A stretch of DNA of 64,000 nt from an uncultured bacterium. GTDB taxonomy: Bacteria > Acidobacteriota > Thermoanaerobaculia > Multivoradales > J023. The position numbers and the translations under genes are program-made. The notes under the pieces were generated by a model that was not told the DNA's origin, searched no databases, and saw only the letters and a program-made list of their open reading frames with translations. The stretch spans positions 21,165-85,164 of the forward strand of contig CBDUGP010000022.1 in the NCBI GenBank assembly GCA_965366625.1. Reading direction: 5' to 3'. This document shows positions 7,627 through 33,800 of the stretch, piece after piece (the first letter of the stretch is position 1; every line of letters begins with the position of its first letter).

Positions 7627-10305
7627 TTGAGCATCAGCACCAAGCTCTCGTGGGTCGCCTTGGTCGTAACCGTGGCCTTGACCTCAGTCTCCTGTGCAGG
7701 CCCGCCTCCACCGACCCTCGACGAGCTCCATCGAGGCGGTTATGACGCCCTTCAACGGGGAGACCTAAGCGCCGCCGAGCAGCTCGCCGACCGGGGCTCC
7801 AGTCGCGCTGCCGCCGAGAGCTCCGAGGAGTGGCGTCTCGCTTTTGGGGTCTTGAAGGCCGAGGTGCTGGCGGGCCGACGCCAGGATCGAGAAGCCGGCG
7901 ATCTGCTCGACCCGATGCTGCAACCCGGACCCGGCGAAGGCCCTAGCTCCCACGACGCGAACTCCCACGACGTGAGCGCCCACGGTGCCGTGTACGTCCG
8001 GGCGCTCATGACCCAGGGTTTGTTGCGCTGCCGCTCAGGAGGCGCAGAGGCCCTCGAAGAAGGTTTGCGGCGACTCGACCAAGCCGGCAGGAAAGCCCAG
8101 GCCCTCCCCTCGAGCACACTCCAGGGAGAAATCGACCTACGTTTAGGCAGCTGTCTCATCTTGGCCGGCCGAGCCGAGGAGGCAGAGCCTTATTTCGAAC
8201 AAGCCCTCGCGGTCGCCCGCCAAGAGAACATCCCCCATCTCGAAAGCCAAGCGGCGGGCAGCCTGGGTTTGGTCCACATCCGCAGTGGCAAATTCGACGA
8301 GGCCACGGAATGGTTATCCCACGCTTTGACCATTGCCGAGCAGATCGGCGCGGACATTTCCGCCGCCAAAACCATCTCCAATTTAGGTTGGTGTTATCTG
8401 GAGCTGGGCAATTACGAACGGGCTTTAACCCTCTTAACCCGAGCTGAGGCTTCGGCTCGGGAACTCGGTTTGGCCGGAGATCGGATCACCAACCTGAACA
8501 ACTTGGGCAGAACCCTCTTCAGGCTCGACCGCTCGTCCGAAGCCATGGACCGATATGCCCAGGCTCTAGAGCTGGCCGACCAAATGGACGCTCAGCAGAC
8601 CAAAGCCGCGGTGTTGTCGAATATGGCCTTGGTGGCGTTCGAGCAGCAGCGGCTCGACGAAGCCGCGGCCTTGCTCCAAGAGTCTTTGACCCTCCGTATC
8701 CAACTCGACGACGGCGTCGGCCGCTTGCACACCATGCTCTCGCAGAGCCAGGTGCTGATGTCCAAAGGCCAGAGCGAGGAAGCGGAACGCCGTGTGCGGC
8801 AAGTCCTTCAATCTCCGCTTCTTCGACCGGACCTGAAACAAGAAGCTCACGGCCTTCTGGCCCTTGTCTACGCCGAATCCCAACGTTTCTCCGAAGCCCA
8901 GGCCGAGCTGGACGTTGCGCTCGAGCTGCTCGACCAAACCCGCGGCCGACTGCGCAACGTCGGTCATCGCATGTCCTTCGGCTCCGGCACCAAAGACCTG
9001 GCGGATATCGCCGTCCGGTTGGCGGTCGAGAGCGGTCGTCCTACCCAAGCCCTGCAAGAGGCGATCGAGAGCCGGGCTAGACTGCTGCGAGAAAGACTGG
9101 GCAAGGAAGCGACTCATCCTCAGAAGGCCCCCGGTGTCTCGGCGCCCGGCCTCTCGGCTACAGGTCTTTCAACTACAGGTCTTTCAACTACAGGTCGGGG
9201 CAACACCGTAAAGCACCTGCAACGATTGGCGGCCGGCTCCAATCATGTCTTCCTGTCGTATTGGACGAGCCGTCCACGATCCTATTTGTGGTTGGTCCAC
9301 TCCGAGGGAGTAGAGCTGCACGAATTACCTTCGGATCTGGAATTGAGCCGGGATGTCGAGCTTTACCAGAAAGTGGTCCTGCAATCCGGAGATCCTTTGG
9401 TGGAAGGGCTCGAAGTCGGCCGACGGCTGTGGAACCGACTGGTGGGACCGATAGCCCAATGGATTCCCAAAAATGCCCAGGTCGTCATCGCGCCCGATGG
9501 CCCTCTGCATCGCCTGAGCTTCGACACCTTGATCGTGCCCCCTGACGACCCACCAACCCGGTCACGATATTGGATCGAGGAAGTGACCACCTCCCTCACC
9601 CCTTCCCTGGCGCTTCTGGGGGTGGCCGCCGAGCCCTCGGAGCTGCCGCGTCTGCTGTTGATCGGCGATCCCGTGCCGACCGAGGACTTTCCTCGGCTGG
9701 CCCACGCGGGCCGTGAAATCCAGCGGATCGCGGCTCTTTTCGAACCCTCTAGACGGCACATCATCACGGGTCCGAAAGCCGACCCTTCAGCCCTACGACG
9801 TTCCAACCCTGAGACCTTTGACTGGATCCACCTGGCAGCCCACGTCACCGCGAATCCGGAGATGCCCCTGGAATCGGCCGTGGTTTTGTCTCCCGGATCG
9901 GGATCCCACAAGCTCTACGCCCGCGATGTATTGGACATCCCCCTGGACGCCGACTTGGTCACCCTCTCCGCCTGCCGCAGCGCAGGGGCCCGTGCCATGG
10001 CCGGCGAAGGCTTGGTGGGATTGGCCTGGGCCTTCATGAGCACCGGTGCCAGGCACGTCATCGGCGGCCTTTGGGATGTGGAAGACGCGTCCACATCCCG
10101 GCTCATGGAGCAGCTGTATCGCGATCTCCAGGCGGGAGATTCCGCGGCCCAAGCCCTACGTCAGGCCAAGTTACAGCTGCTGAACTCGGACTCGGCCTAC
10201 CGCAAGCCCTACTATTGGGCGCCGTTTGTGCTCTACCACGGCACCTCGAGCCTGACCGAGCCAGACTCTTTCCGCCAATTGGGTCCAGACCAGAATTCCC
10301 GTTGA
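7627..10305 (+). CDS. TPR + CHAT (caspase-HetF-associated) domain protein
   Basis: Several TPR-like helices (LGWCYLELGNYERAL; LNNLGRTLFRLDRSSEAMDRYAQAL). CHAT motifs IAPDGPLHRLSF, IHLAAH (His 9841-9843), LVTLSAC (Cys 9973-9975), GLVGLAWAF and PYYWAPF. The TTG start is uncertain. Confidence 0.88.
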   Translation: MSISTKLSWVALVVTVALTSVSCAGPPPPTLDELHRGGYDALQRGDLSAAEQLADRGSSRAAAESSEEWRLAFGVLKAEVLAGRRQDREAGDLLDPMLQPGPGEGPSSHDANSHDVSAHGAVYVRALMTQGLLRCRSGGAEALEEGLRRLDQAGRKAQALPSSTLQGEIDLRLGSCLILAGRAEEAEPYFEQALAVARQENIPHLESQAAGSLGLVHIRSGKFDEATEWLSHALTIAEQIGADISAAKTISNLGWCYLELGNYERALTLLTRAEASARELGLAGDRITNLNNLGRTLFRLDRSSEAMDRYAQALELADQMDAQQTKAAVLSNMALVAFEQQRLDEAAALLQESLTLRIQLDDGVGRLHTMLSQSQVLMSKGQSEEAERRVRQVLQSPLLRPDLKQEAHGLLALVYAESQRFSEAQAELDVALELLDQTRGRLRNVGHRMSFGSGTKDLADIAVRLAVESGRPTQALQEAIESRARLLRERLGKEATHPQKAPGVSAPGLSATGLSTTGLSTTGRGNTVKHLQRLAAGSNHVFLSYWTSRPRSYLWLVHSEGVELHELPSDLELSRDVELYQKVVLQSGDPLVEGLEVGRRLWNRLVGPIAQWIPKNAQVVIAPDGPLHRLSFDTLIVPPDDPPTRSRYWIEEVTTSLTPSLALLGVAAEPSELPRLLLIGDPVPTEDFPRLAHAGREIQRIAALFEPSRRHIITGPKADPSALRRSNPETFDWIHLAAHVTANPEMPLESAVVLSPGSGSHKLYARDVLDIPLDADLVTLSACRSAGARAMAGEGLVGLAWAFMSTGARHVIGGLWDVEDASTSRLMEQLYRDLQAGDSAAQALRQAKLQLLNSDSAYRKPYYWAPFVLYHGTSSLTEPDSFRQLGPDQNSR

Positions 10306-12301: not shown

Positions 12302-12342
12302 TTCCCGATCGACACCCCGATCGACAATAAGGCACCCCAGCC

Positions 12343-12383: not shown

Positions 12384-12412
12384 CGGGCAGAGGGAAGTCG
12401 TCCGCTGGGTCT

Positions 12413-12781
12413 GGTGCCTGGCACCACGTCCCACCATCTTCCTGCCCGGATCAGGTGCCTGGCACCACACCCACCCAGATCACGTGCCTGGTACCGCCAC
12501 GAGATCGCACCGCCACGAGATCTGCTCCATCGGGTCAGGTGCCCATCGGGTCAGGTGCCTGGCACCACACCCAATCACCACCGGGTCAGGTGCCTGGCCC
12601 CGGCACGGGATCTGCTCCACACCCAGATCACGTGCCTGGCACCGCCACGGCACCGCCACGAGATCTGCTCCACCGGGTCAGGTGCCTGGCACCACACCCA
12701 ACCACCATCTTCCAACCACCATCTTCCTGCCCGGGTCAGGTGCCTGGCACCACCCATCCTGGCACCACCCATCCAGGCACC
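12413..12781. repeat. Cluster of family-A palindromic repeats (GGTGCCTGGCACC), all in the same orientation
   Basis: Perfect 13-mers at 12413, 12454, 12554, 12681 and 12739, with degenerate copies at about 12484, 12538, 12589, 12632, 12758 and 12773. Copies are often preceded by CGGGTCA or GGATCA and interleaved with CCACGAGATC(T/G) and CCACCATCTT modules. Confidence 0.9.
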
Positions 12782-12937
12782 ACCCATCCACCATCTTTCA
12801 GCCAAATTGCGGATCTCGGCTATCGATATCGCTAAGATGAATAGGGGCCTCGTGTTGAACACTGACGGGGCCACTCCCAGCCCTGACCCTCTGTTCCATC
12901 CCCCTAAATCCAATCCCCACATTTTGAGGTGGTTTCC

Positions 12938-14311
12938 ATGCACGTGCCGACTCTCCGACTTCCCCTGATCTACTGTTGCGTCGTTTTTCTGCTTTCCGCC
13001 TTGGCTACTAACCCCTTGAGTTCTGCGCCCTTGACTACCGACTCCCCGGGCTCGCAAGGCTCCAACCCAAAGACTTCTGCTGACCAAGAGCGCATCGAGG
13101 ACGACGGTGTCTGGATCACCCTCGGTGCCGATGCTTTTGAGCTCTTGCAGCAAGCCGAATTGCGCTTTGACGGCGCGCCGATTCAAGCCGAGCGAGCCGT
13201 CGGAGACGCGGTCGCGACTCGGGTCGCTCGACAGGACATCGATCAGATCGTCGAATCGTTGCACGATCACCTGCAACGTTGTCCGGGATTCTTCGCCCAC
13301 GGCTCACAGGCGGAAGCCGTGCAAACGCTGTATCGGACCCAGGATCCTCCGCAGCGGGGTGGCCAAATTGAATACGTGATCAACCAGCCCGCCTGGGTCC
13401 TAAATCTGGAAGCTCGCATCGACAAGGCTCGAATTCTGGCGACCATCGAGCATTTGTCGACGGAATACAACAACCGCTACTACCGCCACCCGTCGGGTGT
13501 GCAATCGGCCACCTGGATCCGCGACCAGTGGCAGGGATTCGCCCAAGGACGTGGTGACGTCACCGCCGAACTCTACGAGCATGCCGGCTGGGATCAGCCG
13601 TCAGTCATTCTGACCATGCAGGGCTCCACCCTGCCGGACGAGGTGATCGTGCTCGGCGGCCACCTGGATTCCGTGGCCTCCGGCAGCTCCAACCCCAACT
13701 TCTCCGCCCCCGGCGCCGACGACAACGCTTCAGGCATCGCGGTGCTCACCGAAGTGATTCGGGTCGCCATGGAGGCCGGCTTTCGTCCTGAGCGGACGGT
13801 CAAAGTCATGGGCTATTCCGGCGAGGAAGCCGGCTTGTTGGGCTCCCAAGAAATCGCCGACGACTTCAACGACAACGGCGTTCAAGTGGTGGCGGTGCTG
13901 CAGCTCGACATGACCGACTACAAGGGTTCTGTGCAGGACATGGCCTTCCTGAGCGACTACACCAACAGCACCCTCACAAGCTTCGCCAAGGACCTCTTGG
14001 ACACCTACCAACCCGAACTCGAATGGACCAATACCGCATGCGGTTACGGTTGCTCGGACCACGCATCCTGGCATCGAGAGGGTTATCCCACGGTGATGCC
14101 GTCCGAAGCCATTTTCGGCCAGCACAACCCGTGGCTGCACTCCACTTCCGATACGGTTTCAACTCTGGACAACAACGCTGACCACGCCTATAAATTCGCT
14201 CGATTAGCGGCCGCTTTGATGGTTGAAATCGGTGTCGTCGACGTGGGCCAACTCTTCCTCGACGGTTTCGAAACCGGGGATTGGAGCGCTTGGGCCGAGT
14301 CTGAGCCCTAA
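12938..14311 (+). CDS. Secreted leucyl aminopeptidase-like M28 peptidase with a C-terminal FxDGFExG motif
   Basis: Zn-ligand motifs GGHLDS, GADDNASG, GEEAGLLGS, QLDMT and CSDHASW, plus NNRYY and a signal peptide. Start is ATG 12938 (GAGGT RBS) or GTG 12929. Confidence 0.9.
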   Translation: MHVPTLRLPLIYCCVVFLLSALATNPLSSAPLTTDSPGSQGSNPKTSADQERIEDDGVWITLGADAFELLQQAELRFDGAPIQAERAVGDAVATRVARQDIDQIVESLHDHLQRCPGFFAHGSQAEAVQTLYRTQDPPQRGGQIEYVINQPAWVLNLEARIDKARILATIEHLSTEYNNRYYRHPSGVQSATWIRDQWQGFAQGRGDVTAELYEHAGWDQPSVILTMQGSTLPDEVIVLGGHLDSVASGSSNPNFSAPGADDNASGIAVLTEVIRVAMEAGFRPERTVKVMGYSGEEAGLLGSQEIADDFNDNGVQVVAVLQLDMTDYKGSVQDMAFLSDYTNSTLTSFAKDLLDTYQPELEWTNTACGYGCSDHASWHREGYPTVMPSEAIFGQHNPWLHSTSDTVSTLDNNADHAYKFARLAAALMVEIGVVDVGQLFLDGFETGDWSAWAESEP

Positions 14312-14578: not shown

Positions 14579-17500
14579 GTGAGACCCATGAAACCGCATG
14601 AAACCGCGACCCAACCCATTGCTCCAAAAGCTCAGCATCAAAGACGTCTACTGCCATGGCTGCAAGGCCTAGTCTTCGGCTCGTTATCGTGCCTCATAGC
14701 CCTGTCGAGCCTGGCAGGTGAGACGTCCGTGGTCGACACTTTGCCCCCGGAGCCTGTTTTGCTGCCGAAGATTCATGGCATGGAGCTGGAAAACGGAGCT
14801 TACGAATACACCGACCCCTATCTTCCTTTGATGACCGCCACCCGCGACTATCGGGTCGGGGTTTCACGCAAACTACAAGTCATCAACGGCGTGAGCGAGG
14901 TGCGTTTCTTCCTGCTCAAACCCGAAGCCCTCGACGACCAAGTCGGCTTGGCCGGCTCTCCACCCGGCGCGGCACATTGGATCGACATCTTCGACATGTA
15001 CGCCGGCAACCTAGGTGCGAATCCCCAGCTCGTCGCAGATGCCGACGACTTCCACAGTCATGGGGACGCCGACTTCGGGCCCATGCATTTCTCGATTTGT
15101 GATCCCACCCTAGGTCACAGCAACGGCAGGAACCCCTATTCCTGCGGCCCTAATCTCGATTGTTATGAATTCGATCTTATGCTCGGCCTGTCGATTGGAC
15201 ACACGGCAGCGAATCCCAACCCCAGCGGTGCGGACGAGGCCCAGCTCTTTTCCACCCGTGTCCTGGTCAAGATCCTGAATCCGAAAACCGCGGCCGCATC
15301 CATTCAAAGTGTGGAGATTGTCGACAAAAACGGCAACGGTAACCGGTCTGACGAAACCGTTGCCGGACCCCGTTTCGAAGGCACCACCAGCCACGGCATC
15401 GGCTCGTTCCACACGCCGATGATCGTCGGCGATCAGAACGAATTGCTGTTCGTTCGAATCGGCGGCAACTCGGTGCCGCAATATACCGACGAGAACGGCC
15501 AACCCAGGACCTCCGGCAAACACGACATGGTCTATTCGGTGAATACCACCGGCAACCCATGCGACGTCAACGCCTGGACGGAGCTGCGACCCATTTCGTT
15601 CGCTCCCATCGACCCGGAAGTGGCAGATTTCGGCTTTGCCCAGAATCCGTTCAGAACCCCGTCGGGACATGAGATCCAGCCCCACGAACGGATCTACGGT
15701 ACCTACCTTTGGGTCGACCAGGACGCCGACAACCTATTCTTCGGCAGCCTCAAACGCCCGTTGTTGAGCTCCGACATCGATCCGGCGAAACCCCTCTACG
15801 ACTACACCTGCTGGAACGGCGGCGACGAGTGTCATAGCGGCGAGCGTAGGAGCAACTTCCACGGTTGGATGATGGCCGGCCTGTGGACCCACGGCAAAAT
15901 GGTGCTGCTGGATTCCCTCGTCAACAACATGGATTTCGGAATTTTAGCCGCAGAGAAATACCACACCCGAGTCCAGCTCTTCTCCGACCGCGCGATACGG
16001 ATCGGCACCGGCGAAGACGCGTCAAAAATCGACGGCGGATCCGAGCCCGCGGGTTATGCCCGAACCACCGTGCAATTCGGCTCCACCGAGCACTTCCTCA
16101 ACATGGTCGACGCCATGAAACCTCGCACCCCCCGCGACGTGGTGTGGCACGTGACCGCCGGCGCGGTTTCCGACGAGATCGCCTTCGACGATTTAATCAG
16201 TCATCGCACGCTGATCTTTTCCCCCATGAATGCCTTGAAGGAAATGGATCCCGGTGCGGATCTCACCTACTACGACGGCAATCAATCGGCGGATCCGGGC
16301 CAATCACGAACCCTGCGATTACAAAACTCGGCGACCAGCAAGCGCTTCTTGACCCCACCCTTCGGCGAGGTGGTAGCGTCGTCGGATCAAGGGAGAATCG
16401 AAAACGTGGCGCTCGGCGGTATCAAGGCGCGCGGTTTTTATCTCTTCTCGCCGTCGAGCATCCGTTATTCAATCCCGTCCCAAGATCTGAGCGGAAGAGA
16501 CTGGCTGATCAGCCTTTTCCTGGATCGACGAGATTCGTCGACCGGCCGTTCCCGCCTCTTGACCCTGCCCAGCGGCGCCTCGGTCTCCCTCGATGGGGGC
16601 AATGCTGAGCTGCGGCTGTGCGGAAGCTCCGGCTCTTGCACCCAAATCACCCTGCCGATCGGGATTCCGACCAAAGCCTGGAACCATCTCGCGTTTCTCA
16701 GAGTCGGGTCGACGAATAAGGTTCAGCTCTTTCAAAACGGATTCCTCTTCGCCGAAATCGATCAGCCAGTCGGTTTCGACATCAGCTCCGGTGATTTGGA
16801 GGTGGGCAACACATCTTCGTCCTCGGAAGCGGGATTCGAAGGCTGGATCGATGAGTTCAAAGTGATCGAAGGCCCATTCAACCTCGAAGAAGTCTGCAAT
16901 CACGCCCGCGGCACCCTGGTGTCCATGCCCAGCTCATACCAAGGCGACCCCACCAACCCCTTCGCCCAGCTAGAGCTGCCCTTCCATGCCCGGGACCCCA
17001 AACCCGCCCATTGGGTCTCCGGCCGCGAAGCGGTCCAAGACGCCCTGCACAATGCCACGGCCATCGCCCAATCGCTGTCCGATTACTTCGCCTGCCACGT
17101 CGACTACACCAGCCACCTCGGGGTGTCGGTGCACCATCCAGGCGACCTTCAAATCCGGTCCTTGAGGCGGCGAATTCTCTTCCCTGAGGGCCCTGTGGTT
17201 TTTAATCACCCGCGGCCGACATCGATCCAAAACAACTTCTGCCTTTCGTGCCATGAGCCCGGCCGGACGGCGGGCCTACATACCGATGCCTTGATCGCAG
17301 ACCTCGCCCAGGCGCAGAACGATGCCAGACGAATGCCCATGCAAGCCCCCCGGGATCTAACCGGCTGGGTGCCGTCCGGATATTTCGGCCCGGATCGCCC
17401 GGCCACCGACACGTCCTATTCGGATCTCAACCCTTTGGTCAGCGATCGCTGGACCCACAACGGCCCGATCTTCCGGTGGAAATTCGATTCCGGCGCCGGG

Positions 17501-18217
17501 GCCCTGCAGCACAATTGGGTCGGCGGCAACCTCGAGTCCGGACACGACGGCGATGCAACGTCGACCCTCGGTCTAGCGCGCAAACCCGGAGTCGGCAGGG
17601 CACACAGCCTAGAATTCGACGGCAGCGGCGGATATTTGAGGGTCGACAGTTTGTTCGGTGACGAGCCCGACATTGTTGGAAATCAGCTGACTTTGGCGAC
17701 CTGGATGCGACTCGACTACCCGGGCCAAAGCGTCACGGCCCAGGACCAATGCCTGCCTTTTTCCTCGAGTGTGCCATGCACCGTCATCGCCAAGTCCGGC
17801 TCCGGGAACCACGACATCACCTGGGGGCTGCGGGTGCTCTACAAAGACTCCAGCTGGTGGGCTCAAATGCACGTCACCAATTCCAACGGTGACATCGCCA
17901 ATCGATCCCAAGCCCTGGGATCGGCTCTTGACCCAAGTGCCTTTGACCCAGGTGCCTGGCACCACCTCGCAGCGATCTATGACGACGGTGCCGTGGAATT
18001 CTTTCTCGACGGCAGCTCCCTGGGCGCCGGCGTTTCCATCCACAGCTCGGACACGGATCTCTTGACCGATCCAAGCCACCCTATTTCGATCGGCGCCAAG
18101 CTGAAGAGCGGCACCACGGCCCTCTTTCCCTTTCACGGCCGTTTGGACGAGCTTCACGTCTACGATCGGGCGTTGGCCGATTGGGAGGTCGCCCTGCTGG
18201 TGGTCGAGACACCCTGA
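14579..18217 (+). CDS. Large exported protein with two LamG/concanavalin-A-like domains and one CxxCH motif
   Basis: N-terminal hydrophobic segment. LamG motifs AWNHLAF...GWIDEFKV and AWHHLAAIYD...FFLDG...GRLDELHVYDRAL. CLSCH at 17240-17254. The start may be ATG 14588. Confidence 0.78.
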   Translation: MRPMKPHETATQPIAPKAQHQRRLLPWLQGLVFGSLSCLIALSSLAGETSVVDTLPPEPVLLPKIHGMELENGAYEYTDPYLPLMTATRDYRVGVSRKLQVINGVSEVRFFLLKPEALDDQVGLAGSPPGAAHWIDIFDMYAGNLGANPQLVADADDFHSHGDADFGPMHFSICDPTLGHSNGRNPYSCGPNLDCYEFDLMLGLSIGHTAANPNPSGADEAQLFSTRVLVKILNPKTAAASIQSVEIVDKNGNGNRSDETVAGPRFEGTTSHGIGSFHTPMIVGDQNELLFVRIGGNSVPQYTDENGQPRTSGKHDMVYSVNTTGNPCDVNAWTELRPISFAPIDPEVADFGFAQNPFRTPSGHEIQPHERIYGTYLWVDQDADNLFFGSLKRPLLSSDIDPAKPLYDYTCWNGGDECHSGERRSNFHGWMMAGLWTHGKMVLLDSLVNNMDFGILAAEKYHTRVQLFSDRAIRIGTGEDASKIDGGSEPAGYARTTVQFGSTEHFLNMVDAMKPRTPRDVVWHVTAGAVSDEIAFDDLISHRTLIFSPMNALKEMDPGADLTYYDGNQSADPGQSRTLRLQNSATSKRFLTPPFGEVVASSDQGRIENVALGGIKARGFYLFSPSSIRYSIPSQDLSGRDWLISLFLDRRDSSTGRSRLLTLPSGASVSLDGGNAELRLCGSSGSCTQITLPIGIPTKAWNHLAFLRVGSTNKVQLFQNGFLFAEIDQPVGFDISSGDLEVGNTSSSSEAGFEGWIDEFKVIEGPFNLEEVCNHARGTLVSMPSSYQGDPTNPFAQLELPFHARDPKPAHWVSGREAVQDALHNATAIAQSLSDYFACHVDYTSHLGVSVHHPGDLQIRSLRRRILFPEGPVVFNHPRPTSIQNNFCLSCHEPGRTAGLHTDALIADLAQAQNDARRMPMQAPRDLTGWVPSGYFGPDRPATDTSYSDLNPLVSDRWTHNGPIFRWKFDSGAGALQHNWVGGNLESGHDGDATSTLGLARKPGVGRAHSLEFDGSGGYLRVDSLFGDEPDIVGNQLTLATWMRLDYPGQSVTAQDQCLPFSSSVPCTVIAKSGSGNHDITWGLRVLYKDSSWWAQMHVTNSNGDIANRSQALGSALDPSAFDPGAWHHLAAIYDDGAVEFFLDGSSLGAGVSIHSSDTDLLTDPSHPISIGAKLKSGTTALFPFHGRLDELHVYDRALADWEVALLVVETP

Positions 18218-21818: not shown

Positions 21819-21902
21819 GCAGCTTCGACACTCCATCGATACCCAACGCGGAAAGAGAAAAAGACGAGCTCCGTCGCGGTCCCCGGCTCAAGACATTGCG
21901 AA
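21809..21902 (-). pseudogene. Internally deleted, diverged remnant of the 3' end of a paralog of CDS 23238-24296
   Basis: 21809-21834 matches 23238-23263 at 25/26 nt (encodes SVEAAYE*). 21835-21902 matches 23354-23421 at 56/68 nt (SQCLEPGTATELVFFSFRVGYR vs SQFLELGTTTEPVFFYFRVGDR). Confidence 0.8.
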
Positions 21903-21925
21903 CTGAATCAAGACCATCTGAGTCA

Positions 21926-22130
21926 GTGCCTGGCACGACCACGTTGGACACCACCCGGTTGCGGGCTGAGTCGGTGCCCAAGCTGAGCCAGTACCTGTCA
22001 CCACCGGGTTGGAGTACCACCCAGGTGGGATGCCTGGCACCACTCCTTTGGTGGGCGGGATGCCTGGCACCATCCTTTGGATTGGCACCACTCCTTTGGT
22101 GGGCGGGATGCCTGGCACCATCCTTTGGAT
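21926..22130. repeat. Degenerate family-A repeat cluster including a perfect 48-bp tandem duplication
   Basis: GTGCCTGGCAC at 21926, GTACCTGTCACC at 21991 and GATGCCTGGCACC at 22029, 22059 and 22107. 22035-22082 is identical to 22083-22130. Confidence 0.88.
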
Positions 22131-22244
22131 TTGGCTTGGGCAGTTCGACTCGTGGTCGACAAACGAAAATCTCGACGAAGTCGTCGTATTCTCACAGCCG
22201 CTTTGCATGGTCTTGGCAAAATACTGTCGGAGTCATCGCCCTCA

Positions 22245-22694
22245 ATGATGGCGCAAGAGCGTGCCTACCAGTTCCTAGAGCGTGCGAAGTCTTTGATGGT
22301 GCGACAGTCAAAATCCGTCGCCAAGATGCAGATCAACTGGCATATGGGCAAGATTGCGTTCAATCTCGGCCTCAACAATCAGGGGGAGCGTTTGATCAGA
22401 AAAGCTCGCAAAGGGTTGAGGGAGCTAGGAGAATTCCAAGAGTTTGCTCTCGCGAGTCTAGATCTGGCAGCGCTATACCTGTTGTTCGGTGACACAACTT
22501 CGTTCGAAGCCCTGGTCAGAGATACCAATGAGTATTTGGTGCAGGCCATTCCGGATTCTGAGATGCTGAGAATTCTGTCCAACTGGCGGAGTCGTCTTCT
22601 TCGGTCCCCAGAAGAGTTCACGCAACTCCGACGACAGGTGGCGTCGCTCGGAAAAGAAGCTGCCGCTTCACCGCATGCTCAAATGTGCGAATAG
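22245..22694 (+). pseudogene. Probable truncated TPR-like helical protein (C-terminal remnant)
   Basis: Helical repeat KARKGLRELGEFQEFALASLDLAALYLLFGD. The upstream in-frame extension to 22077 is only translated repeat sequence. Confidence 0.45.
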
Positions 22695-23237: not shown

Positions 23238-24296
23238 TCACTCATAGGCGGCTTCGACACTCCGTCCGCCACCACCATTGAGCCAAAGTCGGGCATGGGC
23301 GCGGACGGTGCCTTCATGGTCGACCCAGGGTGCCTCTAGGTAGCCTTTTCCATATCGATCCCCGACTCGGAAATAGAAAAAGACGGGCTCTGTCGTGGTC
23401 CCCAGCTCGAGGAATTGGGAATAGCCGTCGGCCGGGGCTTCGAGCATCGACCGCAGGGCAGCCCGTGGACCTGTTTCCGCGGGAAAGTGACGCGTTACAC
23501 CGCCGATGGAAGAGAAGTCGAGGGTCGCGCCGACCGGGCGTCGATGGACCGGGGCGACCGGCACGTTTTTAGCGCGATTCTCCGTCACGTCGACCAACGC
23601 GGCCTTGCCGTCGGCTGCGGTGGTTGTGGTTAAGCGCAAGACGAAGGGATCGTCTTGCCCGGCAACTTTGGCCGGCAGATCCCTCAGCCCGACCACACGT
23701 GCCTTGCGGTTGCGAGGGTCGAGGGCCAAGACCGCAGCCTTTGAGGCGTCTCCCGCCACCAGCTCGCCTTGGACCGCCTGCAACTCCACCGGATTCTGAA
23801 GCGGCCGCAAGGTCACCCGCAGACGGGTTTCGTCGACCCTATTGCTCTCCGAAGTGGCGACGGCGAAGTTCAACGTCTCGCTGCGATAGCCGTCCTTGCT
23901 CAAACGAACTCGCACGTCCGTACAAGGACTGCATTGATAACGAAAAGCGCCCGTGACTTCCTCTTTGTGGCGAGTCGACACCCGGAGTTCCGGTCTTTGC
24001 GGGTCAAATGAGCCTTCCGTGACCGACAAACGCACGCCTGCCAGGGGACGTCCCGTGGACGCGTCGACCACGGCGCCGCCCACCCGGATCTCACCGCTGA
24101 GCTTGCTTTCCAGGAGCTCCCGAACCGGAGGCAGTTCGGGAGGAGTCTGTGCCGACAGATAAGACGGTGCCAGGCACATGACCCCTAGGCACATGACCAC
24201 CAGGCACATCCATGCCCTATGAGCGGGTGCCAGGCACGTCCTTGCCAGGCACGTCTTTGCTAAGGCCACCATCGCAATTTCTTTAACCGTATTCAT
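23238..24296 (-). CDS. Exported protein with a carboxypeptidase-regulatory-like domain; candidate immunity/partner protein
   Basis: Starts 3 nt after the giant ORF stop, with a GGGAG RBS. The signal peptide is built from repeat-derived CLA(R/P)/MCL units. Domain block VGGAVVDASTGRPLAGVRLSV...VRVRLSKDGYRSET. Confidence 0.78.
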   Translation of the reverse strand: MNTVKEIAMVALAKTCLARTCLAPAHRAWMCLVVMCLGVMCLAPSYLSAQTPPELPPVRELLESKLSGEIRVGGAVVDASTGRPLAGVRLSVTEGSFDPQRPELRVSTRHKEEVTGAFRYQCSPCTDVRVRLSKDGYRSETLNFAVATSESNRVDETRLRVTLRPLQNPVELQAVQGELVAGDASKAAVLALDPRNRKARVVGLRDLPAKVAGQDDPFVLRLTTTTAADGKAALVDVTENRAKNVPVAPVHRRPVGATLDFSSIGGVTRHFPAETGPRAALRSMLEAPADGYSQFLELGTTTEPVFFYFRVGDRYGKGYLEAPWVDHEGTVRAHARLWLNGGGGRSVEAAYE

Positions 24297-24299
24297 CGT

Positions 24300-27200
24300 T
24301 TACTCCCTCTCCCTTGGCGTCTGCCCCGGCACCTCGTAGTACCACTGATAAATCACCGGGAATCCCGACGTCTGGAAATCACTGTGCCCGTAGAAATCCC
24401 AATTCAGATCCGTGGCATCCACGTTATTCGGCGTCATCACGTTTTCCACCGAGCCGGCCGGAATCAACAGCTGGGTCGCTTCATAAGCCACGCGAATCAC
24501 GTCCGGAAGGCTGGTGGGAATGGGGCCCCGCTCCGGTAGACGGGGGCTCATCATGGCCGGCGAATCGTTCGACAACGCCGGCTGACCCTGCCCGGCCACC
24601 GGAGCGCGCCAACAAGTTGGCGAGCCTTCTTCGCGGTCGTAATGGACCCAGGGATTGCGTTTCGCATAGTCGTCGATGCGCATCAGCTCGAGGGCATAGT
24701 CCTTCCACGCCCAGCTGTGGACTAATTTGGTGGCCGATTCTTTCGTGCTGTGTTGCTCTTGATTGAACCAGAAAGTCCAAGAGTCACAACGTAGATCGTC
24801 TTCGTCGTAAGTGATCGGAATTCCGTAGAGGTCGGGGATACCGCCGACGCCTCCGCTACCCCCCAGCAGACCGTAGGAATACGGCTGCTGCGGCCAGAAG
24901 ACTTCCTGCCAGATGGCCGGCTCCACGGAATAGAGGTTGCGGAAGAGGATGCCCGAGGTATCCACCGCGTGCTGGCGCAAGGCGTCGTAGACCACTTGGT
25001 TGCCCAAGCTGTGGGCCATGACGTAGATATTCTGCGCCTCACCCCCCCACTCGCCGACGATCTTGTTCTCGATCAGCTCGCGGAAGCTTTGGGACGATCG
25101 GAACGAATTGTCCACGTTGTCGATGTAGGAGATCGGCGCGTTTTCGTCGCCTTCCCAGGTAAAACCGACCACGTTGCCGCGGAAACCCAACCAGAACATG
25201 CGTTTGGTCACGATCTGGAAGGAAGCCTTGGCACCTTCTAAGTCGACGTTGAATCCGTGCACCGGCATGAAGTATTGGGTCTTATCCGTGTCGGGCATGG
25301 CGGTGCCAGGCACGTGTTCAGCTTCCGGATACAGGAAGTGGGGAATGGTGTTCACACCCCCGCCCGCATCACACGACGTCTCCGGATGGCATTCGGTTTT
25401 GTAGTTGGTGAATCGGGCCGACGGCGAGCCGCGCGCCGACCACAGGGAGAAGAAATGATTCAGATGCTCCAGGGTCATGCGGATCGAATCCACCGTATGC
25501 CAATCCGACTCGCCCTTCTCCCGTGAGAGCAGATTCATCTGCACTTCGTGGACCGTGTCTTCGCTCGCAAACGGATCCACCCGGAATAAATATCCCGTTT
25601 TGGTCTCGTCCGGAGTCAGCTCCAGCCGTTCGTGGGAGCGCAGCACGTAGTCGACGGACATGGACGCGCTATAGGAGAAGATTCCGCCGCCGAAGAAACC
25701 GCCGATCAAATCCTCGGCCACGTCTTCCCTCGACAAATACTGCAAACCTTCTCCAACGGCGTTCAGAGGAGCTTTCCAAAGCTGGATGTCGACGTCCCGG
25801 CTGGTGTCCACCAGCTGCAAGGTGAAATCGAACCCCTCCTCGATCAACGGTGCCGGGATCTGCAGGTGCAAGGGCGACAAATCGTCGATATTGCCCATGT
25901 TTACCGCTTCCGAATTGGCCGTGTTGGAGGTCCAGAATCGGTAGCCGTCCCCTTGATCCTCCATCATTTCGTCGTATTCGTCGATCGTCCAACCGAGCCC
26001 GTCGGGCACACCGGGGCGGATGTAGTTGTAGCCGCCACCGCTGCCGTCGCTGCTGTTGTTGACGGCGAGGTTCGCTTCCACGGGCGTGAAACGAATGGTT
26101 TGCTCCGCTTCGGACCCCTCAAAGGTCAGCTTGACGGTGACGTCGGCGGTGACCAACTCGCCGCCCGCCTGGGTGCCGTTGAGCGCTTCCACCCACACCT
26201 TGATGGTTTCGTTGCCCGGGCCGAAATTAAAGGTCGACGCGCTGTACGGGGTGCCAGGCACGATGTACAGATCCGGCTCTTTGCTGTCGCTCTGATTCTC
26301 GATCCGCCACAAACGCAGGATTCCCTGCTTCTTTTCGGTGAAGTCGTAATAGCTGTGACTGCCCTTGGTGCCCAACAGCCTGCCGGTATTGTCCGGCAAT
26401 TGCGAAGCCGGCGGACCGTCGTACTCGAAGGTCAGGGTCGCGGCGCCCCAATTGCCTCCCTCGGGCCGCAGCTCGACCATCAGGGGTACGAGGTTGTCCT
26501 CGTTGTCGACCTGTTTGTCGGCATAATCCGGGATCTGATCACCGCTCGCCGAACCGTTACCGTCGTCGTTGTCGTGGTTGACGTAGACGAATTTGCCGTA
26601 GCCTTGGTCGCCGTCGCCTTCCTCGATCTCCTCTTCCAAATCGTCCCGCTGGGGTTCGTCGATGTCGTCGTCGTTATTGGAATCGGCGTCGATATCCAAT
26701 AAGGCAATGGAGAACGGCTCCGGCTCCGACATCACCGTTAGCGGCACGTCGACGCCCGCCCGGGGCGACCACACCCAACCCACGTTGAGCGCCATCAGCA
26801 CCTCGTGATCGCCCTCGGGATGGTCGAACATCTCACCCTGAGGCAGCGTCGCGGTGCCATCGCCGGTGCCGTCGGTTTGGGCCAAGAAGGGAATCGTGCC
26901 GTCCTCGACGAAGAACATGTAGGTGTTGAGGGCCGGGTAATTCGACGGCTGAATTTGATAATTGAAAACCGTATCTTCTTCGTGATTGCCGTCGTGGCCG
27001 AGCAGAACCACCGGCGTGGGCGTGGTGACCTGGCCGGTGACCGACCACAACACGTACGTCGACCGCCAATTTTCGTCCGACACCTCTAAGATTTCGAATT
27101 TGCCGCCGCACAGGGGATCCTCAGTGCAGGGCTCCACCGCCTCGAAATGGGACGCATCGTCTGGGATCACCGGTACTCCGACCCAAGCGGTCGGTGTCGC

Positions 27201-30200: not shown

Positions 30201-30896
30201 CAAATAGTCGGGTCTGACGATCTCCGCCTTGCGGAACCTCAGGCTTTTCTCCTGGGTTTGGACCCGACGTTTGCGCGCCACCGCCGTGGCTTCGATCAGC
30301 TCCGAAGACGGCTTCGCCAGATAACCCTCCGGGAAGGCTCGGCGGTCCGAAGGCGCACGGGCCACGAGCGCTTCGTCGAATTTCGGTGCCAGGCGAGATG
30401 AGATCGGCGAAGCCTCCCGCGACCCACCCGCACAGGCCAACAGCTCGGACAACTCTTGGGAGCTGAGGCTCGCCTTCTCGCCAATCGCCCGTTTCAGCGC
30501 CTGCAGCTTCTCGCCGGCGGACTGCTCGAGTTCGTCCAAGCGCGAGTCCACGTCACCTCCCGCCCGCGCCAGCACCTGCCGTTGATGGGCCAGCTCCTCC
30601 TGCCAGATGAATTCCTCCAGCAGTAGCTCGCGGTCCACCGCCGAGCTTTTGGTCGGCAGGGCGTCGAGCTGGGCCTGGGCCATTTTCGCCAAAGCCGGGA
30701 AATGGCCGTAACACGACTCACCTTGCGCTGCCGACCCAGACTGGGTCGCGGACTGCGCTTGGAGGGGCGAGCCCAAGCCCGGCCACACGGGCAAAAGGGC
30801 CAACCCCAACCAAACCCAACCCTGTGACGGATAACCCTTGGACGGATCACCCTTGGACGAACGACGGGCACGTCCGCCGACGGAAGACTGACTCAT
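24300..30896 (-). CDS. Possible separately initiated 2198-aa protein inside the giant ORF (transglutaminase-like + acidic Ca-binding-like + alpha/beta-hydrolase)
   Basis: In-frame ATG at 30896 preceded by GGAG at 9-nt spacing, then a signal-peptide-like stretch (GRARRSS...WVWLGLALLPVWPGLGSPLQA-Q). Confidence 0.5.
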   Translation of the reverse strand: MSQSSVGGRARRSSKGDPSKGYPSQGWVWLGLALLPVWPGLGSPLQAQSATQSGSAAQGESCYGHFPALAKMAQAQLDALPTKSSAVDRELLLEEFIWQEELAHQRQVLARAGGDVDSRLDELEQSAGEKLQALKRAIGEKASLSSQELSELLACAGGSREASPISSRLAPKFDEALVARAPSDRRAFPEGYLAKPSSELIEATAVARKRRVQTQEKSLRFRKAEIVRPDYLAEKVVELAGDPVAIYNFVLQDIRAGHYYGGIKGPEAVLRSGEGNDADQAGLLAELMRLAGFPARLAWGPQQIPTAALLDHFGAANVPALERVLTAAGIGWSPVISGGRPVAYVLDRVWAEVYLPYANYRGVVLDDSGATWLALDPQLKTFDRSVASDPLLDQMAFDADAFFDSYLAGDVCSRPLEQAGACPMPSALVEQEVDGYLGAGQYPQVTAPELLAEQQGEVLPPGMVGVVLGVDGFGLDLADSLTHRVRLRARDGSRVIFDRTVPVADLSGQEATLWYVPATAADEQIVAANGHRLWNTPPYLVNVRLELRTDGEPLVPASLPIAMGRPFELEMTLTSPTVGSTSFVNDHRAGIAAGLGFGAGAEAYAPPNGEPQNTLELLAAMASDYLSAVDDFGARMARLEGLTRVFPRPSVVTVGSLVEPQGSLGLIESLEYKSVFVDADIHSGRLVGDGGTEDRRVAGRWLALTQLEASARERELFEVQGMAAMSADLALALAADRGITVHRIDSANLGTLLPTLPFDSAVLDEIEGWVLAGGEALVPAEAMSFVDWTGVGYVLLDPLTGERRYQISGTLSGGMLAVPWFEVVEGTRVPLSRPHSGPVNRRGEEAVGGKIFDGNLQLATVGETLSDGDYIAFKVEVFDVDQVPVQGAEVTFTVLTGGGSTASGSVVSDSTGLASVDFTLGTKTDESPYYLLFPEEDHSTRAGLNVVAVEVNGHAVPDLFYAIGAPDEVADLEQPYGQTLNGLPHLSLGTPVLALPVDQYGNPISNQDVVFTLNGSPGGEGKGPELISREDKLGCRPGTVIAGECSAGTTVTDDGGVSGVWAWLVLGEDDSYTVTASATGEDGGSAEVSFTGQVRKDWVPGEVFVGFPVLRVSGRGQPSGGEGVGSIEAYPPGETSVPLQVNVHVVREDFGVEACGEDYCRVPLGTFKATRLGESPAPECLPDSCGGGTLDERVQIAFNGAGGGATVSSPDGDGLYSYAVPLPSTPGRYEITATPTAWVGVPVIPDDASHFEAVEPCTEDPLCGGKFEILEVSDENWRSTYVLWSVTGQVTTPTPVVLLGHDGNHEEDTVFNYQIQPSNYPALNTYMFFVEDGTIPFLAQTDGTGDGTATLPQGEMFDHPEGDHEVLMALNVGWVWSPRAGVDVPLTVMSEPEPFSIALLDIDADSNNDDDIDEPQRDDLEEEIEEGDGDQGYGKFVYVNHDNDDGNGSASGDQIPDYADKQVDNEDNLVPLMVELRPEGGNWGAATLTFEYDGPPASQLPDNTGRLLGTKGSHSYYDFTEKKQGILRLWRIENQSDSKEPDLYIVPGTPYSASTFNFGPGNETIKVWVEALNGTQAGGELVTADVTVKLTFEGSEAEQTIRFTPVEANLAVNNSSDGSGGGYNYIRPGVPDGLGWTIDEYDEMMEDQGDGYRFWTSNTANSEAVNMGNIDDLSPLHLQIPAPLIEEGFDFTLQLVDTSRDVDIQLWKAPLNAVGEGLQYLSREDVAEDLIGGFFGGGIFSYSASMSVDYVLRSHERLELTPDETKTGYLFRVDPFASEDTVHEVQMNLLSREKGESDWHTVDSIRMTLEHLNHFFSLWSARGSPSARFTNYKTECHPETSCDAGGGVNTIPHFLYPEAEHVPGTAMPDTDKTQYFMPVHGFNVDLEGAKASFQIVTKRMFWLGFRGNVVGFTWEGDENAPISYIDNVDNSFRSSQSFRELIENKIVGEWGGEAQNIYVMAHSLGNQVVYDALRQHAVDTSGILFRNLYSVEPAIWQEVFWPQQPYSYGLLGGSGGVGGIPDLYGIPITYDEDDLRCDSWTFWFNQEQHSTKESATKLVHSWAWKDYALELMRIDDYAKRNPWVHYDREEGSPTCWRAPVAGQGQPALSNDSPAMMSPRLPERGPIPTSLPDVIRVAYEATQLLIPAGSVENVMTPNNVDATDLNWDFYGHSDFQTSGFPVIYQWYYEVPGQTPRERE

Positions 30897-33800
30897 GACT
30901 TCTCGCTCCAATCCAACCTCGGTCTGCCGGCTCACCGCGTCCCGTCGACGCAGGATGACCGCGCCGGCAAGGGCGAGCAGCACGGTCAACAACATGAGCA
31001 GACCCGGGCCGAGGGTCGGTATTTCCAAACCGGCGCGGACTTCGACGTCCGCCCGGGACAATTCCAAATCGTAGGGCACCCCGCCGAAATCGCCGGCCGC
31101 GTGCAGCTCCACCCGATAGGTGCCAGGCACCAAGTCAATGGTGTCGAAGCTGTGGATCAGCACCACTTGATCGTCCATCGGCACGGTCTGCACCACCACA
31201 AGGCTGTCGATCACGGCACTGGTCTCGGGATCCACCAACAGCAGGCTGAGCTGAGCGTCCGGCAGGTCCCCGGTGCTCAGGTTGCTCACCTGGGCGTCAA
31301 CCTTCAACGGCACGCCGACGAAGACTTCCTCGGGCAGATAAAGCAGACCGCCGACATCCAAGCCACCTTGGGCCGTGACCTCAAAAGCCACCGTGACCGT
31401 GGAGACGTTGCCGGCACAATCCGTGGCGCTCAGCGCGAGCACGTGATCGCCGACCGTGTCCACCACCAGCGGGCTGCTCACGGGCTGACCGTCGAGCAAG
31501 GCAGAGGAGACCGTGAGGTTGACGTCGAGCATCGTCCATTGGGCGGTCACGCTGGTTTCGTAGCTCCCGCCCTCCACCACACCGTCGACCGTGATCTCCG
31601 GCGCCGTGGCGTCGAGCAGGAAGGAACGGCTCGCGGTGGTGCTCAGTCGACAGCCGTCGACCGCCAGCAACTCGAAGAGGTGCTCGCCGTCGCCCACCAC
31701 CGGCTCCCCGGCGACGTAGGTCAGGCCGTCGAGGGTGGCGACCACCGAATCCAGCTGTTGGTCGTCGGCAATCCAAGTGAAGGCCGCCGAGCTCACGCAG
31801 GCACCTTCCGCCGGACCGCTCAAGTCGAGGGTCGGCGGCGTATCGTCGATCGTCGGCAAGAAGTCCACCGCCACACCGGTGCTGATGTTGTTGACCGTAT
31901 CCTCGGCGAAGACCTCGACCCGATAGGGATCCAGGCGATCCGGATCGATCACCACCCGCGACGAGAAGATCTCGCTCTCCACGCTCTCCCGGGGCAGCGG
32001 CAGGTCGTGGTCGGAATCGTCGAGATGGAAGAAGACCCGGAACACGCTCGACAGCTCGTCGATCGCTCGCACCCGAACCAGCATGGACTCGGAGCAAACG
32101 ATCTCGGTAGTCGGTTCCAGCAGGTCCACCACCGGCGGCGTGCGGTCGACCAACAACAAGCTCGACGTCGCCAAAGGCTCTTCCACGGTGCCACCCACCT
32201 GTGCCGCCGGTCGCTCGGCGGTCAACGACACCAAATAGGACTGCAAGTAGGACACGCTGAGGGGCACGTCCCAGGTGAAGGGACGGGATTGACCGGCGCC
32301 GAAGGAAGTCGCTGCCGCCTCGGCGTGGCCGACCACCGCATTGCGCACGGGATCGATCACGTCCACCTTGACCACCACATCGTTCAACGGCGCGTCGCCG
32401 AAGTTTTCCACCGTGGCGGTGATCGTGAACGGCCCCTCGTCGGGTTCGGCGGAGACCGGAGCCACCGCCACGCTGCCTTGCAGCTCGGCGCCGGCGGCGG
32501 TGATCACGAATCCGACCGGCTCGGAACTCGCCAGCTCCGCGCCCGGCTCGTCCACCACCCGCGCGGTGAAAGCGTAGTTGCCGGGAGGAATCGGCGAGGT
32601 ATCCAGAGCCCATGGCGTGGGCAACAGATCCCCCACGGGCAGGGCGATGACCGGCACGGAGGTGCTCGCCACCTCGGTGCCGCGGGCGATTTCGAGGCCC
32701 GAAACCGCCACCACCGTCAGCTCGACCGTGGCGTCCCGCAGGGTCGCGTCACCAATATTGAGCACCCGGGCCAAGAGGTTGGCACCGGCGCCCCGGCGGT
32801 AAGTGGGACGATCCGTGGAACCGGTGACCTCGGCCGCGACCCGCGCGCCGACGGTGAAGGCTGCGCTCGCCCGCGCCGCTTCGACACCGGCTCGCTGCAC
32901 CGTCACCACCGCCTGGTAGTCGCCGGGGTAAATCCCCGACACCGACCAGCCCGAATTCGTGACCCGGGTTTCGTAACCGAAGGTCTCGTCCTGCCAGCTG
33001 TCCACGTCGGTGACCCAGACGCCGTTGGCATCTTCAATGCTCAGGGTCACCAAAGTCGGCGCCGGACCGTCGTTGACCGTCACCTGTGCAGTAATCGCGG
33101 CGTTCTCGCCCAAGAAGTAGGCCGGCCGGTCGGTGGCGATCTCGGCGTGGGCGCCGAGGGTTTCGCGCACCGGAACCACCATCTCCTCAACGTTGTTGGT
33201 TTCGTCGAGCTCCACCAGCAGATCCGCCGGATCGAGCACCAGACGCCAACGGAAGTCGCCCTCCTGGCCGGTGGTATCCCACAAGAATCGGACCCGACGG
33301 GTTGCGCCCGAAGCCAGGTCAAAGGTCTCGCTGACCACCACGTCGGAAGCCCCGGAGGGTGCCGTGCGGATCAAGCTCGCCACCAATCCTTCGAGTTCCA
33401 CGGCTCCGGCATTGCGCGCCACGCCGTCGATGGCGACGGTCGTGCCGGTGACCGGGAAAGCCGGGGTCGCGGTGATCGATCGAACCTCCGCGTCACCAAA
33501 GGCGTCGGGGTCGACGATCACCTCGATCGGCAGGCTCTCTTGCACATCCGCCCCGAGCTCTTGGCGGGCGACAAAGGTATTGGTGCCCACCGCCAGCTCC
33601 ACGTCGGGCAAGACAAAGGTCCCGCTGGGCTGGAAGCGGCGTTGCAGCTGTTCGTCTTGGGTCAGCCACAGGGCACCGTCGTCGGTGCGCATCAGGTCCC
33701 AAGGACCACCGTCGCCCCACGGCAAGGCGTAACGATCCAAATCCGCCGCCAGCACGGTCTCACTGCCATCGATCATGGAACGGGTCTTCAGGCTGAAGAG

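Follow-up and report, generated by a model that had tools for sequence, protein, structure and literature searches.

A 64,000-nt stretch of contig CBDUGP010000022.1 (the window), assembled from an uncultured bacterium of the Acidobacteriota, contains 16 sites of the palindrome GTGCCWGGCAC (family A) distributed around RAYT-A (20877-21818, + strand), a gene encoding a 313-amino-acid protein that resembles the HUH/Y1 transposases associated with repetitive extragenic palindromic (REP) elements, the REP-associated tyrosine transposases (RAYT). We propose, at a probability of roughly 0.6, that RAYT-A has its own REP family, in which the family-A palindrome forms the apical stem-loop (GGTGCC-W-GGCACC), gene and repeats together making up a REPtron; a RAYT-like gene with flanking palindromes is the REPtron arrangement known from the literature (PMC3733652, PMC6006769). 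REP/RAYT systems are already known, and the one described here is a new and divergent member, which is unusual in having minimal copies inside genes that appear to have formed by substitution, in the tight clustering of its copies at the RAYT gene, and in a hairpin tip that is common to many phyla.

A palindrome family clustered around RAYT-A

Dinucleotide-preserving shuffles predict 0.03 sites of GTGCCWGGCAC in the window, in agreement with a first-pass annotation of this DNA that had put the expectation well below one copy per 64 kb, and with 16 sites the word is by far the commonest palindromic 11-mer present (the runner-up has 4 copies). The seven coordinates at which that annotation had placed copies within coding sequence (10045, 17951, 24166, 24226, 25302, 26250, and 31119) all carry GGTGCCWGGCAC/GTGCCWGGCAC. 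All 16 core sites fall within 10046-31130 (10.0-31.1 kb), that is, within ~11 kb on either side of RAYT-A at 20.9-21.8 kb, and no copy was found in the other ~55 kb seen, which comprise the rest of the window and 12.5 kb of flanking contigs from the same population (L132, ~10 kb on the right, and L136, ~2.5 kb on the left). In the ~76 kb of this genome that is thus visible, nine core copies are extragenic and seven lie in open reading frames (ORFs); the nine intergenic cores are those of an array at 12413-12790, a doublet at 20661-20724, and a copy at 21926. No RNA family matched the repeats when the window and nine motif-rich loci were scanned with Rfam, and a literature search for the 11-mer and 13-mer sequences returned unrelated primers alone. 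A CRISPR-like array was rejected as an explanation, given that the supposed spacers are themselves repeated and that cas genes are absent.

RAYT-A carries an HUH motif of the form N-H-W-H (LGNHWHIL), a tyrosine motif K-Y-V-L-S-N (KYVLSNSAKEGL), and a D-W-P-G motif, and it has a C-terminal extension of ~170 amino acids without recognisable domain. Its start at 20877 follows the gene call in contig L006; at the default Pfam threshold there was no match for ORF 20802-21818 (299/338 amino acids). Compared with the NCBIfam model NF047646, 'REP-associated tyrosine transposase', the protein scored 46.7 bits (E = 2.8e-12). In an alignment with a paralogue from the same window, RAYT-B, and RAYT-like proteins of other loci, residues N61, H62, H64, R104, and Y123 are invariant, and a profile of the RAYT alignment had as its top PDB match 4ER8, the TnpA-REP of E. 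coli (E = 7.5e-8), followed by ISDra2 TnpA.

Palindromes lie on both sides of this gene. The REP doublet found ~150 nt upstream (20661-20724) consists of two near-perfect palindromes of 23-31 nt (GGGTAGGGTGCCWGGCACCCTACC), which make up inverted repeat I1 (96% complementary), carry GTAG/CTAC (GGGTAGG...CCTACCC), and have predicted DNA hairpins of -11.3 and -16.8 kcal/mol (z = -4.2 and -6.4). Downstream, 110-310 nt from RAYT-A (21926-22131), there is an exact core at 21926 together with three GATGCCTGGCACC variants, which span 22029-22119 and lie in a 48-nt tandem repeat. Over the whole family, which includes both doublet and arrays, predicted hairpin energies lie between -7 and -17 kcal/mol, z reaching -6.4. 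REPs typically carry a GT[AG]G tetranucleotide at the hairpin foot; here GTAG/CTAC occurs in the RAYT-proximal doublet and in a second repeat family, family B, the array at 12.4 kb has GTCA, and gene copies have none. ORF 21761-22492 (+ strand, 243 amino acids), which is drawn over the downstream repeats, lacks a Pfam match and is probably non-coding. A partial copy of the 3′ end (23238-23421) of a neighbouring 352-amino-acid gene occupies 21809-21902, taking in the final 10 nt of RAYT-A and the 84 nt that follow it.

The RAYT-A module is absent from the syntenic site of the relative L007, in which the halogenase gene abuts a 339-amino-acid gene, and in a sample of the same species (L002) the entire module of doublet, gene, and downstream REP copies is tandemly duplicated with 99.9% identity (6400-9539, corresponding to 20659-22313 of the window). 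Five relatives covering 87 kb together (L007, L131, L177, L178, and L009) contain a single copy of the palindrome, which is intergenic; directly after it, GGCACC half-sites form a tandem array with a 16-nt unit. The family has undergone expansion in this lineage only.

Copies of the palindrome inside genes

To obtain a codon-aware expectation, we shuffled synonymous codons within each gene 2000 times, keeping protein and codon composition. Under this null, ~59 kb of coding sequence would contain 0.50 copies; eight were observed, the shuffle maximum was 4, and 0 of the 2000 shuffles attained the observed count. The eight include the copy in ORF 21761-22492, judged non-coding; seven remain, five of which sit in firmly supported genes (10045, 17951, 25302, 26250, and 31119). 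The excess within genes that the first-pass annotation had anticipated is thus present at the scale of the window, with 0.5 expected and 5-8 observed depending on which copies are counted. By our own estimate, the chance that all five gene copies would fall in the 10.0-31.1 kb interval is ~0.002 if copies were uniform over coding sequence.

The spelling of the copies points in the same direction. The motif uses rare codons (AGG, 5% of Arg; CCT, 11% of Pro; GGT, 23% of Gly), and the motif spells each of the three VPGT tetrapeptides of the window, a spelling for which codon usage gives ~0.047 per occurrence, as well as two of three GA[W/R]H tetrapeptides. Palindromes in general, counted in genes for arms of 5 and 6 nt, are as frequent as under the codon-shuffle null, with no general excess, and the effect is thus specific to this motif; a generic correction of quasi-palindromes is disfavoured for the same reason. 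These figures bear directly on the view that the gene copies are a chance outcome of amino-acid motifs and codon usage, spotted by way of the intergenic family. WHH in LamG domains, GAR in CHAT domains, and PGTY in Ig-like domains are indeed natural motifs that supply half of the palindrome, but the codon-shuffle result, the motif spelling of VPGT in 3/3 cases here and 5/5 in a second acidobacterial genome (L041, see below), and the presence of amino-acid replacements towards the motif among the derived changes together render a chance origin extremely improbable.

The 13-mer GGTGCCWGGCACC has zero stop codons across all six frames, and hence can reside and survive in genes. Within genes the motif occupies all three codon phases, read as VPGT, GA[R/W]H, or CLAP, so that 'in frame' here means an unbroken reading frame and not one fixed frame. 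We compared the individual sites with syntenic relatives, namely L007 (78-85% amino-acid identity), L131 as an outgroup for the C-terminus of a giant gene, and L177 and L178 for a CHAT gene (65-68% identity).

The CHAT-gene copy (10045-10056, core 10046, + strand) reads GGT GCC AGG CAC (G A R H) and lies inside the Pfam CHAT domain of ORF 7627-10305. The orthologous sites read GGT GCC AGG AAT in L177 and GGA GCC CGA AAC in L178, both encoding GARN, and the motif at 10046 appears to have been completed, free of indels, by a change from AAY to CAC (N to H). The LamG-gene copy (17928-17963, core 17952, + strand) reads GGT GCC TGG CAC C (G A W H H) and lies inside the Laminin_G_3 domain of ORF 14579-18217. 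The first-pass annotation had recognised a natural LamG motif here, and an alignment of 13 LamG homologues bears this out for WHH, W1127 and H1129 being invariant and H1128 nearly so. The window has GGT GCC TGG CAC CAC at this site and L007 has AGC GCC TGG CAC CAT, which suggests a replacement of S by G in which the arm encoding the conserved WHH was kept and the left arm was turned into its complement. A 15-nt tandem duplication lies just upstream of 17952, and its five codons are missing from the L007 orthologue.

Three further copies lie in a gene for a giant surface-type protein of 7590 amino acids (24300-47072, - strand), whose C-terminal homologue P0016 has Big_1 and DUF900 domains. Each reads GTG CCT GGC ACC, and they had been correctly read as VPGT in the earlier annotation. 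At 25302-25313 (core 25303, - strand) L007 has GTG CCC GGC ACC, so that the sole difference is synonymous, from a common to a rarer Pro codon, and the outgroup L131 has CAC GCG GAC ACC. The copy with core 26251 is embedded in a 29-nt hairpin (26242-26270, - strand) with an outer stem CTGTAC/GTACAG, 2-nt internal loops, and an inner GTGCC-W-GGCAC (-7.5 kcal/mol, z = -2.9), which is missing from the relatives. L007 and L131 both encode APGV where the window encodes VPGT, at the same length as in L131, which indicates that the motif at 26251 was probably derived in the lineage of the window; within the hairpin 14/30 nt differ from L007, compared with 1/15 just upstream. For the third copy (31119-31131, core 31120, - strand; context LVPGTYR), a search for homologues covering the site turned up distant ones alone. 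Of these, the 7614-amino-acid protein P0063 has LDLVPGTYRLEL at the matching place (LVPGTYRLEL); in this protein-level comparison the peptides match, and VPGT at 31120 is thus old and the motif there a matter of codon choice.

Two additional cores, accompanied by half-site repeats with a 15-nt period, lie at 24166-24260 (- strand) and correspond to codons 21-45 of ORF 23238-24296 (- strand), where the 15-nt tandem repeats encode TCLA, MCLVV, MCLGV, and MCLAP. The L007 orthologue has an equivalent ATG adjoining the stop codon of the giant gene and an ordinary signal peptide ending SA|QDPPELPP, the cleavage region SA|Q(D/T)PPELPP being shared. Given the shared start and cleavage region, the copies at 24166 and 24226 probably lie inside a signal-peptide coding region. 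The first-pass annotation had placed them in a signal peptide, and this is probably right, with the qualification that they fall within an expansion of 20 codons (60 nt, or 4 x 15 nt) that the L007 orthologue lacks.

Taken together, the five firm gene copies appear to have arisen without insertion, by nucleotide substitution in place, and several of the inferred substitutions would have changed an amino acid. The firm sites were part-matches beforehand (GAR-, -WHH, VPGT) or lie in fast-evolving loops, and in three of the four cases where the direction of change could be assigned, an ancestral arm constrained by the protein was retained and the opposite arm became its complement. Sequence added relative to orthologues was found solely at the 24166-24260 expansion and in the 15-nt duplication beside 17952. 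Of the two origins raised in the first-pass annotation, point mutation accordingly agrees with the ortholog alignments, in which no comparable site changes length, and RAYT-mediated insertion fits the 24166-24260 expansion and perhaps the 15-nt duplication at 17951 but not the five firm sites. In-gene duplications with the 15-nt period occur at 17928-17957, 24170-24209, and 24228-24260.

The same comparison tells on the classical alternative, in which mobile REP or REPIN units inserted into genes and the reading frame was kept by chance. Intragenic REP insertions are documented (PMC3733652), and the 60 nt gained in the signal peptide, the duplication beside 17951, and mini-arrays of QVPGT in L041 would all be in keeping with them. 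There is no length change at 10046, 25303, or 26251 relative to orthologues and outgroup, however, the peptide at 31120 is conserved in a distant homologue, and the added sequences resemble local tandem duplications rather than a transposed unit. We consequently regard insertion as an unlikely origin of the gene copies. Conversion tracts from array units were also evaluated and rejected as a source, as the extended identity is marginally above chance.

Substitution origin and the use of rare codons have also been reported for HIP1, and the first-pass annotation had drawn an analogy with HIP1 and DNA uptake sequences. On this reading the palindrome would be a word spread evenly through the genome and kept by a methyltransferase-linked repair bias (CCWGG, of Dcm/Vsr type) or by biased uptake and recombination. 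The core does contain CCWGG, which is mildly over-represented (observed/expected 1.2). The distribution, however, is strongly clustered, with 16 copies in 21 kb and none in ~55 kb, and the relatives have 1 copy per 87 kb; such a local and lineage-specific pattern is unlike HIP1 or uptake sequences, and the analogy does not hold in this respect. The intergenic arrays with their extended stems have no counterpart in HIP1 or uptake signal sequences (USS), and the cluster has a cognate RAYT gene at its centre. The window ORFs scanned include neither a methyltransferase nor a Vsr gene, and a specificity of 11-13 nt far exceeds the context of very-short-patch repair. An evenly kept genomic word is therefore quite improbable, and we return to the association of the palindrome with RAYT-A as the preferred interpretation.

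The 13-mer in other genomes and other repeats of the window

In a scan that took a single genome from each species, we looked for pairs of the 13-mer separated by 20-50 nt and recovered at least 120 loci (L010-L129) from at least 11 phyla, with a GC content of 33-76%; these phyla include Bacillota, Actinomycetota, Pseudomonadota, Planctomycetota, Acidobacteriota, Gemmatimonadota, Desulfobacterota, Cyanobacteriota, Spirochaetota, Elusimicrobiota, and others. Flanks from different taxa are unrelated and form at least 83 distinct unit contexts that usually have a species-specific stem extension, and G is avoided directly outside the 13-mer (8/120 among the matches listed). An all-against-all BLAST of ORFs from the 120 listed loci returned common housekeeping families and no shared neighbour gene; the link to RAYT at other loci emerged once RAYT-A of the window served as query. 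With this query, the identical 13-mer was seen to flank RAYT-like genes in a gammaproteobacterial metagenome-assembled genome (MAG; L015) and an actinobacterial MAG (L087), and in Alkalihalobacterium elongatum (L083) one copy lies just downstream of the stop codon of a RAYT-like gene. Copies in genes also occur elsewhere: in Acidobacteriota bacterium OFTM328 (L041) a giant Rhs-type ORF (3699-7390) has all five of its VPGT tetrapeptides spelled as the motif, three of them in an in-frame QVPGT mini-array with spacings of 24 and 33 nt, and in Pseudoduganella lurida a copy encoding GAWH lies in the linker of an ABC transporter.

As a control we examined GGGTCCWGGACCC, a palindrome of the same composition, in metagenome contigs, and found 40 loci with 16 contexts and REP-like pairs. 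At one of these (L162, Ga0172363_10055985, 233-1075) it flanks a 224-amino-acid RAYT-like gene (NF047646, E = 7e-18), from which it follows that arbitrary GC-rich palindromes of 13 nt can be REP cores. REP families with other palindromes as their core are thus common. The recurrence of our 13-mer across phyla is suggestive, the control having been drawn from a different collection than that used for the 13-mer scan. Viral contigs, also used as a control, gave 1 match, too few for statistics.

The cross-phylum loci also inform a regulatory interpretation, in which the palindrome would be an operator bound by a sigma-54 activator or a nucleoid protein and selected as such. Copies are confined to one gene neighbourhood, the motif holds TGGCAC, which is the -24 element of sigma-54 promoters, along with GCACC, a half-site that recalls those of NtrC, and a gene for a sigma-54 activator (FHA-GAF-AAA+) lies just left of the window (L136, 755-2665). 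None of the copies is followed by a -12 TTGC element, though, and the repeats yielded no sigma-54 promoter. Operators do not resemble arrays in which as many as 6 copies carry hairpin extensions, or copies far inside a 7590-amino-acid gene, and in unrelated phyla the 13-mer flanks RAYT genes whose neighbours are themselves unrelated. We judge a role as operator very unlikely, and a REP family associated with RAYT-A remains the interpretation that we favour.

The family-A array at 12413-12790 lies between the FG-GAP/DUF7450 and M28 peptidase genes and has 6 exact cores as well as degenerate ones, its units folding into an outer stem of 4 bp and an inner stem of 5 bp separated by an internal loop of 2 nt. 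Tandem Repeats Finder (TRF) resolved the arrays into short tandem duplications with periods of 11, 14, 15, and 16 nt, which often take in one arm of the palindrome; arrays thus build up from intergenic copies as short stretches of ~11-16 nt are duplicated in tandem. A 184-amino-acid ORF over the array (12414-12968, + strand) has no family support and is probably an artefact, although the public contigs L001 and L003 call it as a gene, and several contigs of the same species end in or beside repeat arrays. Repeat arrays of this kind break metagenome assemblies and yield spurious ORF calls, of which the 184-amino-acid 'gene' is an example.

Short tandem duplications with a 15-nt period, perfect or near-perfect, are also common in genes of the window, accounting for 17 of 62 TRF rows (period 12 in 9, period 18 in 2), with examples at 7947-7984, 9158-9196, 30818-30859, 46915-46977, 58606-58646, and 61060-61101. 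The units of these in-gene duplications are mutually unrelated, and slippage by ~15 nt may accordingly be frequent in this genome.

The paralogue RAYT-B (55865-56812, - strand; 315 amino acids, 44% identity to RAYT-A) has the motifs N-H-F-H and T-Y-C-L, and its position is kept in the relative L177; alone, it had no NCBIfam or Pfam match. A pair of family-B repeats (56956-57007) adjoins it, and a family-B array of tandem units of 28-44 nt with the core CTACCTGGTAC lies at 48181-48502. The core CTACCTGGTAC is a sister motif of family A, separated from it by a single transition in each arm, and the reverse complement of CTACCTGGTAC, TACCAGGTAG, carries GTAG. The site at 12483 in the family-A array is a hybrid of the two families (CGTGCCTGGTACC).

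The two arrays border a 36-kb segment of the window (12300-48640) that lies between the FG-GAP/DUF7450 and M14 peptidase genes and contains the M28, LamG, halogenase, RAYT-A, and 7590-amino-acid genes, with the family-A array at its left junction and the family-B array at its right. In L177 (14576-14965) the FG-GAP/DUF7450 gene is followed directly by the M14 peptidase gene, and the 390-nt spacer between them holds an array of half-sites, TGGCACCTGA.

Support for the proposed system, a possible mechanism, and known systems

Several observations weigh against assigning the palindrome to RAYT-A, or against linking the gene copies to it. At 46.7 bits, RAYT-A falls short of the curated NF047646 cut-off of 80, its match to Pfam Y1_Tnp is not significant (E = 0.16), and its membership draws on motifs and a small profile, the protein being a predicted transposase. 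The GTAG tag is missing from most array and gene copies. The five firm gene copies have no insertion signature, contrary to transposition by a Y1 transposase, and the link between RAYT and the gene copies is thus circumstantial, consisting of proximity and co-occurrence within a lineage. With ~76 kb of the genome in view, the clustering could have arisen locally by accident, and the family may be common elsewhere in the genome. The CHAT site of the L177 orthologue already has GGTGCCAGG, yet that contig is without the full motif. Lastly, identities between gene copies and array units extend to 19 nt (25303 and 12632) and 18 nt (17952 and 12740), which is weakly above chance and partly explained by protein conservation.

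The substitutions may have been driven by a local process specific to the motif and not by selection at the level of the protein. The mechanism that we prefer as a hypothesis, with low confidence, is one of templated repair. The RAYT, or the REP hairpin machinery, would nick or stall at sites in single-stranded DNA; short-patch templated repair would follow, either through fold-back synthesis or through copying of nearby REP copies; and near-cognate sites close to the RAYT gene would in this way be converted stepwise to the REP core. An ancestral arm paired with a new complementary arm, as observed at 3/4 sites, is what fold-back or templated short-patch synthesis would produce, and because there is no generic excess of palindromes such a process would have to be tied to this particular hairpin. 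A broader version, in which the GGTGCC-W-GGCACC hairpin is recognised by RAYT-type HUH nucleases of at least 11 phyla that, besides moving REP units, convert near-matches close to their own gene by nick-triggered templated repair, amounting to a HIP1-like drive, is speculative and in our view unlikely to be correct. Were it true, a domesticated transposase would be rewriting a few codons, including some in essential and giant genes.

Copies of REP and REPIN families within genes have been described only as insertions. The present case consists of a minimal REP core that seems to have appeared in conserved genes via substitution, using rare codons and sometimes altering the protein, and such cores within genes were confined to the vicinity of the RAYT gene and to the lineage carrying it. 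If this link is causal, it would offer a concrete way to study the action of RAYT proteins and would mean that a domesticated transposase can shape coding sequence.

Among systems that alter the frequency of short words, very-short-patch repair at CCWGG by Dcm/Vsr, reportedly treated by Bhagwat and McClelland (1992), is similar in that a repair bias is able to raise the frequency of words containing CCWGG. It differs in acting on a 5-nt context rather than the 11-13 nt seen here, and CCWGG is just 1.2-fold enriched in the window, where no dcm or vsr is among the scanned ORFs. The DNA uptake sequences (DUS) of Neisseria and the USS of Pasteurellaceae are likewise short words that accumulate in genes by molecular drive at positions tolerated by the protein. 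They are non-palindromic, evenly distributed, and dependent on competence, with neither hairpin arrays nor a transposase, whereas the motif described here is palindromic and clustered and forms arrays with hairpin extensions.

The HIP1 palindrome of cyanobacteria (GCGATCGC), reportedly the subject of work by Robinson (1995/1997), Delaye and Moya (2011), and Elhai (2015), is closer in behaviour, being a short palindrome found in genes above codon-aware expectation and spread by substitution and not by insertion. HIP1 is an 8-mer that occurs fairly evenly at about one per kb genome-wide, is linked to a methyltransferase, and has no transposase partner and no hairpin arrays. The family described here differs in its local distribution and its RAYT, and the ~76 kb in view show no even, dense spread.

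In Rickettsia palindromic elements (RPE), as in intragenic REPs such as those of Opitutus terrae, an insertion adds 20-50 or more residues (PMC3733652). These elements resemble the present copies in that palindromic repeats are tolerated in frame in functional genes, often in loops, linkers, and N-termini. The difference is that only the signal-peptide expansion adds residues here, the five other sites having none added at the motif.

The closest comparison is with REPtrons, for which Nunvar (2010) is said to be a further reference on REP and RAYT. REPs or REPINs together with a RAYT (TnpA-REP) constitute a REPtron (Bertels and Rainey 2011, PMC3116915; Messing 2012, PMC3479197; Di Nocera 2013, PMC3733652), REPs inside genes as well as REPtrons are documented (PMC3733652), and the classes of TnpA-Y1 proteins are diverse, including acidobacterial ones with extra C-terminal domains (PMC6006769). 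Relative to these systems, the RAYT of the window is divergent, with 313 amino acids, a C-terminal extension of ~170 amino acids, and a score below the NCBIfam cut-off; the conserved unit is a hairpin tip of 11-13 nt with outer stems that vary by locus; the gene copies are minimal substituted cores, not inserted units of 20-40 nt; and all copies lie within ~11 kb of the RAYT gene. What the two have in common is a short hairpin palindrome present in many copies, in doublets and clusters; an HUH/Y1 transposase-like gene flanked by cognate repeats; the GTAG/CTAC foot on the RAYT-proximal copies; a lineage-specific expansion; and occasional copies within genes.

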